A program made the translations under genes and the position numbers. The notes under the pieces were generated by a model that ran no database searches, was not told where the DNA came from, and was given only the letters and a program-made list of their open reading frames with translations. From Thermoplasmata archaeon (GTDB taxonomy: Archaea; Thermoplasmatota; Thermoplasmata; RBG-16-68-12), in contig DASWDU010000001.1 of assembly GCA_036395115.1 (NCBI GenBank), positions 558 through 64,557 of the forward strand: a stretch of 64,000 bases of DNA, in the 5' to 3' direction. Below, piece by piece: positions 3,699 to 56,794 of the stretch. Within the stretch, counting starts at the first letter, position 1. Each line of letters begins with the position of its first letter.

Positions 3699-3771
3699 TG
3701 CTCCCGACGGGATTTGAACCCGTGTCAGAAGCTCGAGAGGCTTCTATCCTTGGCCACTAGACTACGGGAGC
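3699..3771 (-). tRNA. tRNA-Glu (anticodon CUC)
   Basis: The reverse strand folds by hand as GCTCCCG TA GTCT AGTGGCCAA GGAT A GAAGC CTCTCGA GCTTC TGAC ACGGG TTCAAAT CCCGT CGGGAGC A. This is a 73-nt cloverleaf with no encoded CCA. A TATA-like CCTTTATG lies about 30 nt upstream (3798-3805). Confidence 0.9.
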
Positions 3772-39118: not shown

Positions 39119-40723
39119 GTGACCGAGTTCTCCGCAAGCACGCGCGCGGCGAACCTCGAGCGGATGCGCCGGGAGACGTTCGACGTCCTGATCGTGGGAG
39201 GCGGGATCGTCGGTGCCGGCGTGGCGAGGGAGGCGGCGTGCCGCGGTCTCCGGACGGCCCTGGCGGAACGCGGGGACTTCGCGAGCGGGACCAGCGGGAA
39301 GACATCGCGCCTCGTCCACGGCGGCCTGCGGTATCTGAGGAACTACCGGATCGGGCTGGTCCGTCAGGGGGTGCGGGAACGCGATCGTCTCCTGGCGACG
39401 GCGCCGTGCCTCGTCCATCCGCTCCCGTTCGTCATCCCGGTGTACCGGGATCGGCCTCCCGGCGCCTTGGCGTTGCGGTTCGGGCTCCTCGTGTACGATC
39501 TCCTCTCGAAGGGAAAGGCGGTGCCCGGGCGGACGTGGCTCCGGCTCGAGCAGGCGATGGCTCGAGAACCGCGCCTCGCGGAAGTTGCGATCGCGGGCGC
39601 AGGGATATACTACGATGCGTGGACGGACGATAGCCGCCTCGTCCTCGCGGTCGTCAAAGACGCCGCGGCCGCGGGGGCGGTCGTCGCGAACTACGCCGAG
39701 GTCTCCGAAGTCATCCGCGAAGAGGAGACCGTGTGCGGCGGGCGCGTCCGAGACGGCCTCGCCGGCGATTCCTTCGAGGTCCGCGCGGGGGTCGTCGTGA
39801 ACGCGACCGGGGTCTGGCTCGACCGACTCCGGACCCCGAGGCCGCACCCCACGATCCGGCCGACGAAGGGCGTCCACGTCTTCGTGCCTCGCGCGAGGCT
39901 CGGGCACCACCACGCGATCGCGCTCACGGTGCGGACGGACGGTCGGGTGGTGTTCGTCCTCCCTTGGGGAGATCTGACGCTCGTCGGCACGACGGACACG
40001 GACTTCGCGGGCGATCCGGACCACGTCGTCGCCGATCCGGCGGACGTCGACTACCTGCTCTCCGCGGTGAACGAGGCGTTCCCGGACGCGCATCTCACCC
40101 GCGACGACGTCGTGAGCGCCTACGCGGGCCTCCGTCCGCTGCTCCGCAAGCATGGGGAAGATGTGTCCGAGTCCGAGGTCTCTCGCGCGCACGAACTCTT
40201 CGAGGACGAGGACGGCCTCATCTCGGTGGCCGGCGGAAAGCTCACGACGCACCGGGCCATGGCCGAGGAGGTCGTGAGCCGCATCGTGGGCCGGCGTGCG
40301 ACGGGGTCCACGAGCGACCGTTCGCTCGGCCCGAGCGCCTCCCCGCTCGAGGACTTCACGGACCTCGGACTGGACGAGGCCGCGGCGTCGCACCTCCAAA
40401 TGAGATACTCGCTCGCCGCGGTCCAACGGAATCTCGAATCGCCCGGGGCGCGCGGCCGAATCGTCCACGGACGCCCCTGCCTCTGGGCGGAGGTCGACCT
40501 CGCGGTCCGTGAGGAGATGGCGCTCCGCCTTTCCGACGTCCTCGTGCGCCGGCTCGGGCTCTTCTATGAGACCCCGGATCAGGCGTTCGGCGTCGCGGTG
40601 CAAGTCGCCGCGCGAATGGGCCGGATCCTCCGGTGGAATCCGCGCACCGTCGAGATGGAGCTTGCAGAGTACGCGGAGCTCGTTCGGGCGCATCGCGCAT
40701 TCCGCGAGGACCATGGCCGCTGA
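39119..40723 (+). CDS. FAD-dependent glycerol-3-phosphate dehydrogenase (GlpD/GlpA family)
   Basis: ORF 38624..40723. GTG 39119 (VTEFSASTRAANLERMRRETFDVLIVGGGIVGAG) is preferred by analogy with GlpD N-termini. ATG 39164 is an alternative. Also TSGKTSRLVHGGLRYL. Confidence 0.85.
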   Translation: MTEFSASTRAANLERMRRETFDVLIVGGGIVGAGVAREAACRGLRTALAERGDFASGTSGKTSRLVHGGLRYLRNYRIGLVRQGVRERDRLLATAPCLVHPLPFVIPVYRDRPPGALALRFGLLVYDLLSKGKAVPGRTWLRLEQAMAREPRLAEVAIAGAGIYYDAWTDDSRLVLAVVKDAAAAGAVVANYAEVSEVIREEETVCGGRVRDGLAGDSFEVRAGVVVNATGVWLDRLRTPRPHPTIRPTKGVHVFVPRARLGHHHAIALTVRTDGRVVFVLPWGDLTLVGTTDTDFAGDPDHVVADPADVDYLLSAVNEAFPDAHLTRDDVVSAYAGLRPLLRKHGEDVSESEVSRAHELFEDEDGLISVAGGKLTTHRAMAEEVVSRIVGRRATGSTSDRSLGPSASPLEDFTDLGLDEAAASHLQMRYSLAAVQRNLESPGARGRIVHGRPCLWAEVDLAVREEMALRLSDVLVRRLGLFYETPDQAFGVAVQVAARMGRILRWNPRTVEMELAEYAELVRAHRAFREDHGR

Positions 40724-40803
40724 GACGCTCTTCATCGAAGGCGATGCCGATCCTCTCGGAATAAGAGATAGCCCCGGGCAGATTCGAACTGCCGTCGCGA
40801 GGT

Positions 40804-40827
40804 CTCTCCTCGGTCCGGAGGACCGAT
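40804..40827 (-). other. tRNA intron 2 (24 nt), at the canonical position 37/38
   Basis: ATCGGTCCTCCGGACCGAGGAGAG. The central helix is CTCT/GGAG. The bulges are GG|A and AG|A. The inner 7-bp helix is TCGGTCC/GGACCGA. Confidence 0.8.
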
Positions 40828-40843
40828 CCAGAGCCTCGAATCA

Positions 40844-40871
40844 CTGGCCCGCGACCGAGAGCCGGTCACGA
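40844..40871 (-). other. tRNA intron 1 (28 nt), at a non-canonical D-loop position 21/22
   Basis: TCGTGACCGGCTCTCGGTCGCGGGCCAG. The central 4-bp helix is GGCC/GGCC. It is flanked by 3-nt bulges AA|T and AG|T. The inner 8-bp helix is CGTGACCG/CGGTCGCG. Confidence 0.7.
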
Positions 40872-40940
40872 TTGGCCGCTAGACCACGGGGCTGCGCGCG
40901 ATTCAACGGGTAGGACGTATTTTGCCTTTCCTACTTGGTG

Positions 40941-41057: not shown

Positions 41058-41984
41058 CTATCTCCGGAGGTCGGCGTAGACCCTGGCAAAGCCTTGCCGC
41101 CAACTCGGGTATTTCAGGCGCCAGCCGAGTTCGCGCTTGGCCTTGGCGTTGGTCAAGCCCGTCGATTCGGACATCATGGTGACCAAGCCGCCGCCGAACA
41201 GCTTCGCCAGCCACAATGGCACCCGGCGGGGCCGCTTGACGCCCAAAGCGTTGGCCATAGCTGGCAGCCATTCCCGCATGGGCGCCGGGTCGTCGTCGAC
41301 CACGTTGTAGACGCCGGGCCGGCCGCACTCCAGGGCAAGCACCGTTGCGGCGGCAGCGTCATCGAGATGGATGAACGACCACACGCTGCTGCCGTCGCCG
41401 ATTATGGGCATCTTGCCCTTCTGAAGCGGCGCTACCAGCCCGTCGTTGGCGGCGCCATAAAAGCTACCGTAGCGTAATGCGACGCCGCCGGCTCTGGCGA
41501 TAGTTTCTTCGAGGCGCTGCAAGGCTTCGAAGTTCTCTCGCTGGTCTTTCGGCAGCGACGGATTGAGGGCGTCGTCTTCCGACTTTGGCCGGCCGTCGCC
41601 GCGGGCGTGACGGAAGTTGCCGAAGCTCTGGGCGACGAAGCGCTTCACGCCAACCGCCTTGCCTGCGGCAAGCAGCGCGTCCAGCCCTTGGGTGCGCAAC
41701 TGGGTCGTGGCTCGGATCATGGTCTTTGCCTGGCCCATGCTGTGGCTGCTGCCCAAAGCCGTCGCCTCGTGGATGATGGCGTCGAGCCTGGCGTCGACGA
41801 CGGCGCGACGAACCGCGGGCGCGTCGCGAAGATCGAGCTGCACTGGCTTGGCTCCGAGGGCGCGCAACCGGTCCGCCGTCTCCGGATGGTGATGCGTGCC
41901 CACGACGTCATGGCCCGCTGCGACCAATTGGCGAACCAGGGGCAGTCCGATGGCACCGGAGGCGCCAGCGACGAAGACGCGCAT
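41058..41984 (-). CDS. NAD(P)-dependent epimerase/dehydratase (extended SDR)
   Basis: ORF 41058..42161. ATG 41984 gives MRVFVAGASGAIGLPLVRQLVAAGHDV, a Rossmann GxxGxxG motif. Confidence 0.85.
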   Translation of the reverse strand: MRVFVAGASGAIGLPLVRQLVAAGHDVVGTHHHPETADRLRALGAKPVQLDLRDAPAVRRAVVDARLDAIIHEATALGSSHSMGQAKTMIRATTQLRTQGLDALLAAGKAVGVKRFVAQSFGNFRHARGDGRPKSEDDALNPSLPKDQRENFEALQRLEETIARAGGVALRYGSFYGAANDGLVAPLQKGKMPIIGDGSSVWSFIHLDDAAAATVLALECGRPGVYNVVDDDPAPMREWLPAMANALGVKRPRRVPLWLAKLFGGGLVTMMSESTGLTNAKAKRELGWRLKYPSWRQGFARVYADLRR

Positions 41985-46933: not shown

Positions 46934-48592
46934 TCAGACGCCCGCCTTGCGAAGCCGCCGCAACTCCTTCGTTTTGTGCGCGAAGATCTCGCGCATGTAC
47001 TTCATCGGGAGCGACCCCGCGTACAGGATCGTGTCGTGAAAGAACTTGTCCGAGTACGCCGTCCCGAGATCCTTCTTCACGCGGGCCTGGAGTTGGACAA
47101 TCAGATGCTTCCCCAGCAGGTACGAGAGTTGGTACGCCGGCCAGTACGTGTAGCGCTTCACCTCCGCGATCGCGCCCGCCTTCTCCATCCCTGCTTCCCG
47201 CACGAGGAGCTCGACCGCCTCGCCGAACGACATGCGTCCCATGTGGAGGTCCACGTCGATCAGGATGCGGCACGCCCGCCAGATCTGGTCGAGGAGCTGG
47301 ACGAACTTCGTCTTCGGGTCCGCGCTGAACCCCGCCTGCTTCATCATGTCCTCGCAGTAGTGCGCCCAGCCCTCCACGGTCTCCGTCGCGCCGACGAGGA
47401 TCCGCGCATAGGAGGGGTTGAGGGTCGCGCACGTGAGCTGGAGGTGGTGGCCCGGGTACCCTTCGTGGACCGCCGTGTTGCGCGTGCCTGCATAGGAGTG
47501 TTCGCGCAACATCTCCGGCTTGTCCTCGATCGGCGTGACCATGTAGAACCCTTGCTTGCGCGGCTCGAATCGCGCGGGCGAGTTGTATGCCGCGAACGGG
47601 ATGATATGCCGGATGTATGTCGGCGTCTCGATGACGCTCAGTTCCTCGTTCGGCGGGATCGTCGCGAGGTCGTGCTCGCGGATGAACGCCTTGGCGTCGG
47701 CCATCGCCTTCGCCGTGTAGGCGAGCGCCTCTTCGAACCGCGCCGGATGATCGGACTTGACGATCTCCTTCGCTTCTTCGACCGACGCGCCTCGTCGAAT
47801 CTCTCCCGCGACCTGCGACAACGCTCGCTTGCTCTCCCGAAGGTACGTCTCCCCGACCGCGTAGATCTCCTCGACGGTCAGGCCGAGTTCCCGCAGGCGC
47901 ACGAGCTTACGGAACTTTGCGGCGCCGATGCCGATCCGCTCTTCCGCTCGCGGGAGGAGTTCTTTCTCGATCCACGTGGCGTATGCCTGCAGGGCGTCGT
48001 TCGTCTTCGCGACCGCCTCCCGGAGCCGCGCGCGATCCGGACCCCCGAGGACGCCCGATCCCGCGCCTTCGATCACCTGTAGAAATCCGGGCAGCCGCTG
48101 GACCGATTCGAGTCCGATCTCCGACCATATCTTCACGGGCGCGCGGATCCGGCCTTTCGTCTCCTCGATGAACGCGGGCGACTTCTCAAGCCGGGCGGTG
48201 ATGCTCTCGAGGCGCCGCGGCAAGGGCGCGAACTCGCGCATGAAGAGCGGGAAGAGGCCGTCGCCGACGCTCGGTGCGGCGTTGGGCATCGCCTGCCATA
48301 TCGCGAGTTCCTCCGATTCGAAGATCCAGAGGCGAAACGAGTTGCGGAGGACGCCGTGATCGACGCGCTTCGAGGGAGACAGCGTCTTCGGGTCGATCGC
48401 CTCGAGCCGGCGCAGGAACCCCTTGATGCGCGATCGTTCCTCGAGCTCCGCTTCGTAAGAGCCGCGCGGAAGCAGGTGATCGTATTCGTGGATCCCCACA
48501 TGGGTCGCGAAGCTCGGGTTCCACCGGATGTACCAATCGACAACCTCTTTGGCCAGGCCGTCCAGCTCTGCGTCGGACATCAGCGCGGGCAT
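46934..48592 (-). CDS. DUF885-family protein (metallopeptidase-like)
   Basis: 552 aa with HEGYPGHHLQ and a downstream EGWAHYCE, which is the DUF885 pattern. Confidence 0.85.
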   Translation of the reverse strand: MPALMSDAELDGLAKEVVDWYIRWNPSFATHVGIHEYDHLLPRGSYEAELEERSRIKGFLRRLEAIDPKTLSPSKRVDHGVLRNSFRLWIFESEELAIWQAMPNAAPSVGDGLFPLFMREFAPLPRRLESITARLEKSPAFIEETKGRIRAPVKIWSEIGLESVQRLPGFLQVIEGAGSGVLGGPDRARLREAVAKTNDALQAYATWIEKELLPRAEERIGIGAAKFRKLVRLRELGLTVEEIYAVGETYLRESKRALSQVAGEIRRGASVEEAKEIVKSDHPARFEEALAYTAKAMADAKAFIREHDLATIPPNEELSVIETPTYIRHIIPFAAYNSPARFEPRKQGFYMVTPIEDKPEMLREHSYAGTRNTAVHEGYPGHHLQLTCATLNPSYARILVGATETVEGWAHYCEDMMKQAGFSADPKTKFVQLLDQIWRACRILIDVDLHMGRMSFGEAVELLVREAGMEKAGAIAEVKRYTYWPAYQLSYLLGKHLIVQLQARVKKDLGTAYSDKFFHDTILYAGSLPMKYMREIFAHKTKELRRLRKAGV

Positions 48593-56710: not shown

Positions 56711-56794
56711 TGCGGCGGCCAGGATTCGAACCTGGGAACCCCTGCGGGACGAGACCCTAAATCTCGCGCCGTTTCCGTGCTTGGCTACCGCCGC
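56711..56794 (-). tRNA. tRNA-Leu (anticodon UAG), class II with a long variable arm
   Basis: GCGGCGG TA GCC AAGCACGGAAAC GGC G CGAGA TTTAGGG TCTCG TCCCGCAGGGGTTC CCAGG TTCGAAT CCTGG CCGCCGC A. Length is 84 nt. Confidence 0.9.

Follow-up and report, generated by a model that had tools for sequence, protein, structure and literature searches.

The window, by which we mean the whole 64,000-nt stretch of DNA analyzed, comes from the 2.40 Mb genome (50 contigs, 65.5% G+C) of an uncultured soil archaeon and carries a 125-nt gene for tRNA-Gln(CUG) on its minus strand. The gene lies between a plus-strand gene resembling FAD-dependent glycerol-3-phosphate dehydrogenase, which ends at 40723, and a minus-strand gene for an NAD-dependent epimerase, with its end at 41058. 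It consists of three exons and two introns, and the features at the locus are as follows.

40916–40930, minus strand: promoter-like box made up of a purine-rich stretch and then CAAAATA, its end lying some 25 nt upstream of the gene; promoter role presumed.
40769–40893, minus strand: tRNA-Gln(CUG) gene of 125 nt with three exons and two introns; the two-intron form is conserved at 24 loci in 23 genomes.
40872–40893, minus strand: exon 1, with the acceptor 5' strand, the D-stem 5' strand and the D-loop up to A21; invariant in all 24 two-intron loci.
40844–40871, minus strand: intron 1, 28 nt, position 21/22, relaxed HBh' motif (from the bulge-helix-bulge scan, RNAfold and shuffles); absent with an exact junction in 12 genomes of the genus.
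40828–40843, minus strand: exon 2, with the D-stem 3' strand, position 26, the anticodon stem 5' strand and the anticodon loop up to G37.
40804–40827, minus strand: intron 2, 24 nt, canonical position 37/38, strict hBHBh' motif (from the bulge-helix-bulge scan and compensatory pairs); found in relatives of genera g1 and g10 and of families f6 and f7.
40769–40803, minus strand: exon 3, with A38, the anticodon stem 3' strand, the variable loop, the T-arm, the acceptor 3' strand and the discriminator A.
40758–40768, minus strand: pyrimidine-rich trailer that follows the discriminator base immediately and is probably a terminator; C/T-rich trailers occur in relatives too.

Removal of 40871–40844 (28 nt) and 40827–40804 (24 nt) from the gene left 73 nt, which ARAGORN called as tRNA-Gln(ctg) with the anticodon loop CUCUGGA. 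In the ARAGORN fold of this spliced product the acceptor stem has 7 bp and the anticodon stem and T-stem have 5 bp each, and the D-stem contains a U13-U22 mismatch. The spliced product was identical, at 66 of 73 positions and with no gaps, to an ortholog that has no intron and belongs to another family of the order (locus L032, positions 1462–1534; 51.4 bits on the Rfam tRNA model in 'evalue' mode); the differences include a compensatory pair in the D-stem.

We scanned both introns for a BHB (bulge-helix-bulge) motif, defined as a 4-bp central helix with two 3-nt bulges on opposite strands and cuts after the second base of the bulge. Both introns showed a 4-bp central helix in the right register at their borders. 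For intron 2 the scan gave the central helix CUCU/GGAG (4/4 pairs), an inner helix of 7 bp, an outer helix of 5 bp that is the anticodon stem itself, and the bulges GG|A and AG|A; this is a strict hBHBh' motif. For intron 1 it gave the central helix GGCC/GGCC (4/4 pairs), an inner helix of 8–9 bp, an outer helix of 1 bp, and the bulges AA|U and AG|U. The strict form needs outer and inner helices of at least 2–3 bp, and intron 1 does not have it; with its central helix, regular 5' bulge and inner helix, and with the outer helix missing, it conforms to the relaxed HBh' motif. A strict motif at the 3' site of intron 1 was considered and rejected: only C16-G23 pairs there, followed by a G-A mismatch and then by A14-U25.

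Folding of the whole precursor with RNAfold gave the same intron 1 helices as the BHB scan, with a minimum free energy of −67.6 kcal/mol (z = −3.44); none of 200 shuffled sequences folded equally well. The fold placed the 3' site of intron 1 in a 4x3 internal loop above the D-stem, on the side with 3 nt. In the case of intron 2, RNAfold preferred a central helix shifted by two bases, at an energy close to that of the splice register. When intron 1 was shuffled with its borders fixed, a 4-bp central helix was accompanied by an inner helix of 8 bp or more in 16 of 200,000 trials, and by one of 4 bp or more in 371 of 200,000.

The presence and absence of intron 1 in relatives provided a separate view of its borders. 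The genus (g1) comprises 38 species genomes, and the gene was matched in 35 of them; the three g1 genomes lacking a match (G047, G006, G007) are incomplete (67–70%). Both introns were present in 23 of the 35 genomes, at 24 loci because one genome, G010, has two copies. The other 12 genomes (G002, G018, G053, G041, G005, G023, G016, G014, G051, G013, G009 and G052) contained only the 37/38 intron. Their alleles had the same exons, save for a single base change in one allele, and ran uninterrupted across the predicted junction of exon 1 and exon 2. At three of the 24 two-intron loci (L005, L017, L120) the first base of intron 1 was A rather than T; this removes a 1-nt ambiguity and fixes the border to the base. 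The initial annotation had described the locus as a tRNA-Gln(CUG) gene with a 37/38 intron and a relaxed HBh' intron at 21/22 of the D-loop, and the BHB scan and the one-intron alleles bore out this description, borders included.

Outside the genus, the gene was found in three of the five sister-genus genomes searched, each time with the 37/38 intron alone. The same one-intron form occurred in five genomes belonging to two other families, and two further relatives had no intron. The two copies in G010, both of the two-intron form (L012 on G010:C248 and L121 on G010:C2), differ by two bases in the intron 1 loop; they may stem from a true duplication or from mixed strains in the bin.

The 3' half of intron 1 is the same in all 24 copies, and this favors a single origin. 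To follow its later history we used an EndA protein tree rooted with other families, which is the tree of a single gene and not a species tree. Its earliest four g1 branches were three two-intron genomes (G048, G001, G004) and one one-intron genome (G041); nine one-intron genomes formed one clade, and the one-intron genome G002 fell inside a large two-intron clade. The fewest changes in intron 1 that this tree allows is four. Topologies that grouped the one-intron genomes, or alternatively the two-intron genomes, as one clade were each rejected by the AU test (p = 0.0008 in both cases). From this single-gene tree we infer that intron 1 was gained once near the base of this soil Thermoplasmata genus and then underwent several precise losses or allele replacements. 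A donor of intron 1 was sought in the same genome with blastn-short, and only the locus itself was recovered, the other best matches being 13–21 nt long at E 0.75. Alleles with and without the intron that share the same exons within one genus are rare material for dating gain and precise loss, and if our reading is correct the genus would offer a natural series for the turnover of archaeal tRNA introns.

The tRNA-Gln(CUG) gene is not the only disrupted tRNA gene of this type in the genome. At least five more carry non-canonical introns: Lys(UUU), Pro(GGG), Leu(UAA), a CAU tRNA, and iMet. A strict T-arm/acceptor pattern scan of the genome yielded nothing beyond the ARAGORN calls, and the hidden genes came in part from weak Rfam matches and anticodon-arm scans. 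In coordinates of the same genome (G000) they are:

C27:1602–1712 (G000:C27:1602-1712), minus strand: tRNA-Pro(GGG) interrupted in the D-loop at 20/21 by an intron of 38 nt; the central helix is CUUG/CAAG, with 6 bp in the inner and 1 bp in the outer helix.
G000:C25, about 87,260–87,430, minus strand: tRNA-Lys(UUU) with three introns (D-loop 20/21, 37/38 and T-loop), upstream of rpoH (86971–87204).
G000:C34, from 84920, plus strand: CAU tRNA with a 31-nt T-loop intron at 59/60.
G000:C28, ending at 56789, minus strand: tRNA-Leu(UAA) with a 29-nt T-loop intron at 59/60.
G000:C50, within 47504–47738, minus strand: initiator-like tRNA(CAU) whose T-loop holds a 33-nt intron, with an insert of about 29 nt in the variable region.

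The T-loop introns have the T-stem as their outer helix and are nearly strict, with three of four central pairs. The three D-loop introns (Gln, Pro and Lys) are relaxed, their 3' sites facing A14 and G15 across an internal loop. Intron 1 of the Gln gene has the same architecture as the D-loop introns of the Pro and Lys genes, but is positioned two bases further 3' (21/22 versus 20/21); comparison by eye revealed no sequence similarity between it and them. The D-loop intron of tRNA-Pro(GGG) was present in all 30 loci fetched and parsed, 29 from g1 and one from the sister genus (G071), and G074, G073 and G028, two of them sister-genus genomes and one from another family, lacked it and had the exons joined exactly as predicted. 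The Gln intron, for its part, is restricted to a single genus, in which some genomes have it and others do not. For the initiator-like tRNA, the variable-region insert gave no BHB fit in the register scanned.

We propose the following route of maturation for the tRNA-Gln(CUG) gene. The gene would be transcribed as a 125-nt precursor, in which each intron and its neighboring exon bases would fold into a motif of the bulge-helix-bulge type. The genome's single EndA, a two-unit protein of the alpha'2 type, would then cut in both bulges of each motif, and RtcB, which is present in the genome, would join the exons into a 73-nt tRNA reading CAG. For intron 1, the 5' cut would fall in a regular 3-nt bulge and the 3' cut on the 3-nt side of the internal loop next to the D-stem. 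G18-G19 of the D-loop is required for the tRNA elbow. The 4-bp central helix of intron 1 is predicted to tie up these two bases, so that the elbow could not form until intron 1 had been removed.

We put a probability of about 0.88 on this explanation as a whole, namely that the gene is functional, that EndA cuts both introns, that RtcB joins the exons, and that intron 1 was gained once and then lost several times. Counting against the removal of intron 1 are the outer helix of 1 bp at its 3' site and the lack of a specificity loop in EndA. These same features would suit a different outcome, in which intron 1 is retained and the tRNA works with an extra hairpin in its D-loop, or the insert serves some separate role: the 3' site has no proper outer helix, and the only EndA of the genome belongs to a type reported as strict in the available text of PMC5829648. 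We consider this outcome improbable. An insert that stays in place would keep G18-G19 paired. At borders that the alleles define, the geometry of a 3-nt bulge, 4 bp and 3 nt is exact, and the helices on which it depends were seldom reproduced by shuffling (16 of 200,000). The helix is conserved and the loop is not. Lastly, two other tRNAs of the genome have a D-loop insert of the same architecture, and one of them, tRNA-Pro(GGG), is intron-less in some relatives.

An alignment of the 24 two-intron loci showed the signs of a working gene. All exon columns were invariant, while the loop of intron 1 varied in sequence and in length (5–7 nt) and the inner part of intron 2 varied likewise. Pair counts on a hand-drawn structure found 99.9% of cells paired. 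The inner helix of intron 1 had four invariant pairs, three pairs with one-sided changes that remained paired, and one unpaired cell; none of its pairs showed a double compensatory change among the 24 loci. In the inner helix of intron 2, three pairs showed double compensatory changes. The purine-rich box with CAAAATA lies at an equal distance upstream of the gene in g1 loci with and without intron 1.

The genome also appears to depend on this gene. As a check on function, the initial annotation had asked whether another, intron-less tRNA-Gln(CUG) exists, and no second tRNA-Gln(CUG) was found in the 50-contig draft, which is 98.45% complete. CAG accounts for 7288 of 9556 glutamine codons (76%) in 634 long open frames with high GC3. 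Could the locus nevertheless be a decaying or silent pseudogene, with CAG read by tRNA-Gln(UUG) or by a gene that was not assembled? The draft state and the completeness value leave room for a gene missing from the assembly, and the same genome does contain an intron-less tRNA-Gln(ttg) at C30:12600–12672. Yet across the 24 loci, drawn from 23 species genomes, the exons do not differ although the intron loops have diverged, the promoter-like box is conserved, both splice motifs are intact in all copies, and none of the 35 g1 genomes with a match has a second intact copy of a different form. Decay or silence at this locus is therefore very improbable in our judgment. On the comparative sequence evidence we concluded that it is a real, functional tRNA-Gln(CUG) gene.

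The splicing endonuclease was of particular interest, since the initial annotation had forecast from the relaxed motif that the organism would possess a broad-specificity EndA of the (alpha-beta)2 or epsilon2 architecture. The forecast failed. There is one EndA gene in the genome (G000:C44:7338-8387), which encodes a protein of 350 amino acids. Its Pfam layout is N-domain, catalytic-type domain, N-domain, catalytic-type domain, that is, two tandem units in one polypeptide. The protein aligned over its full length with the homodimeric enzyme of Archaeoglobus fulgidus (1r0v/2gjw; query 22–349 to chain 16–304), and its best solved relatives were the A. fulgidus enzyme and a fused Methanopyrus kandleri construct (5x89; query 2–338). 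The epsilon2 structure 4fz2 matched only the catalytic unit, residues 187–334. In the alignment no residues of this EndA lie opposite the Aeropyrum pernix insert at the site of the crenarchaeal loop, and the catalytic unit aligned with the M. jannaschii enzyme with small gaps only (7–165 against 6–166). None of the loop inserts associated with broad specificity (L1/CSL, L2/ASL, L3), which bring a Lys close to the active site, was apparent, L2 and L3 being assessed solely from the spans of the alignments. At the sites aligned with M. jannaschii 1a79 the C-terminal unit carries Y, H and K, presumably the Tyr/His/Lys catalytic triad of EndA; by eye, no His stands at the corresponding place of the N-terminal unit. 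EndA had the same length in g1 genomes with and without intron 1, and its close relatives in public genomes came from soil MAGs (Thermoplasmata, Methanobacteriota, Methanomassiliicoccales). As predicted from domain order and alignments, the single EndA of this genome is of the two-unit alpha'2 type and lacks the crenarchaeal loop.

A broad-specificity enzyme would nonetheless be the expected partner of a relaxed intron. In the text of Kaneta et al. 2018 available to us (PMC5829648), broad EndA specificity is attributed to the inserts L1–L3, and 'Cluster II' Euryarchaeota are reported to encode alpha'2 enzymes only; Fujishima et al. 2011 describe the same link between enzyme architecture and relaxed motifs in ARMAN-2 (PMC3239211, from excerpts). 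The motif of intron 1 and this published trend (PMC3239211, PMC5829648, as excerpted) are what would speak for an endonuclease of the (alpha-beta)2 or epsilon2 architecture that made the relaxed intron possible. Against such an enzyme stand the single EndA gene, its two-unit domain order and full-length alignment with the A. fulgidus alpha'2 enzyme, the restriction of the 4fz2 match to one unit, and the missing A. pernix-type loop insert; we regard its existence in this organism as highly improbable.

What the forecast did raise is a real question, namely how a loop-less alpha'2 enzyme handles relaxed D-loop introns. According to the portions of PMC5829648 that we consulted, removal of a D-loop HBh' intron in vitro was inefficient with both the alpha'2 EndA of A. 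fulgidus and the loop-less enzyme of M. kandleri. Relaxed non-canonical introns are, in the excerpted papers, removed only by (alpha-beta)2 and epsilon2 enzymes with special loops, whereas here three such tRNAs occur with a loop-less alpha'2 EndA alone. A bolder claim than our main reading would be that the loop-less alpha'2 EndA cuts relaxed HBh' D-loop introns in vivo and that the 21/22 intron of tRNA-Gln was gained once and precisely lost or swapped at least three times within the genus. We see the chances of this combined claim as evenly balanced. If it is true, then the accepted link of enzyme architecture and loops to intron type would fail for this class.

Comparison with published systems placed the gene among known types. 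The closest published case, in the text available to us, is the pre-tRNA-Glu(UUC) of M. kandleri, which is likewise euryarchaeal and combines a 37/38 intron with a relaxed HBh' intron in the D-loop (20b/21), and whose EndA is also without a specificity loop (PMC5829648). The M. kandleri case differs in the tRNA and the position, Glu(UUC) at 20b/21 as against Gln(CUG) at 21/22, and in the enzyme, which is an (alpha-beta)2 heterotetramer there, according to the same partial source, and a single two-unit protein of the alpha'2 type here. It differs also in that our gene belongs to a mesophilic soil lineage of Thermoplasmata, in which the intron is polymorphic within a genus. Thermoproteales and other Crenarchaeota also have BHB-type introns outside 37/38, among them the D-loop intron of Aeropyrum pernix pre-tRNA-Thr(UGU), and these are often relaxed and number two or three per gene (PMC5829648, PMC8450103, in the parts consulted). 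The crenarchaeal EndA described in those parts is, however, an (alpha-beta)2 enzyme with the crenarchaeal loop, and this genome has neither. ARMAN-2 (Ca. Micrarchaeum), once placed near the Euryarchaeota, has many non-canonical introns as does the present genome, but its EndA is a three-unit epsilon2 protein with a loop of its own, compared with two units here (PMC3239211, from excerpts).

The available text of the tRNAscan-SE 2.0 paper assigns non-canonical introns mostly to Crenarchaeota and Thaumarchaeota (PMC8450103), and such introns go unmentioned in the portions consulted of a comparative genomics paper on Methanomassiliicoccales (PMC4153887). A full-text literature search, which covered main texts, turned up no publication on introns of this kind for Thermoplasmata or Methanomassiliicoccales; this negative rests on parts of PMC5829648, PMC3239211, PMC12397907, PMC8450103, PMC4153887 and PMC6379350. 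As far as this literature goes, the earlier view that a D-loop intron is unusual for a euryarchaeal-type genome was upheld. It has to be qualified, however, by the close precedent in M. kandleri (PMC5829648, in part) and by the five or more further genes of this kind in the genome itself. The gene is a further case of a known type of non-canonical archaeal tRNA intron.

General tRNA finders did not recover the gene under its proper name, as the initial annotation had anticipated. In its default mode ARAGORN called no gene at the locus, and with the option -i it reported a tRNA-Glu(ctc) whose intron has 36 nt and whose variable arm is long. The Rfam tRNA model gave no match to the unspliced gene, either at the gathering score or at E ≤ 10, and none at the locus in a whole-genome run; nor did it find any of the three one-intron alleles submitted (L018, L122, L123). 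In 'gathering' mode the model also missed the intron-less ortholog in L032, which it scored in 'evalue' mode, as well as a tRNA-Leu(tag) at 56711–56794 of the window that ARAGORN found. Because these two genes escaped it, a report of 'no tRNA match' from gathering mode is weak evidence. The Rfam miss of the unspliced gene is a limit of the model and no evidence against the gene.

Glutamate tRNAs are not known to have a long variable arm. The ARAGORN -i output is what would speak for a tRNA-Glu(CUC) gene with one 36-nt intron at this locus, and we dismissed this reading as close to impossible, given the weak D-stem of that model, the ordinary tRNA-Glu(ctc) already present in the window at 3699–3771, and the relatives without intron 1, which cannot fold in this way and are plain one-intron Gln(CUG) genes. 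Similar errors affected the other D-loop cases: tRNA-Pro(GGG) was mis-called as tRNA-Lys(ctt) by ARAGORN -i, and tRNA-Lys(UUU) was missed by both ARAGORN and the Rfam model. When finders drop or misname the tRNA-Gln(CUG) gene, genomes of this group look unable to read CAG, their main glutamine codon.

Two minor observations concern other tRNA genes of the genome. A weak second copy resembling tRNA-Ser(CGA) (G000:C11:30301-30374, plus strand, 32.6 bits) lies about 0.5 kb after the real gene. The tRNA-Trp(CCA) gene at G000:C4:2796-2976 (minus strand) has a 104-nt intron containing a C-box-like GUGAUGA and a D-box-like CUGA, and this intron presumably resembles the box C/D guide RNA of tRNA-Trp introns in other Euryarchaeota.
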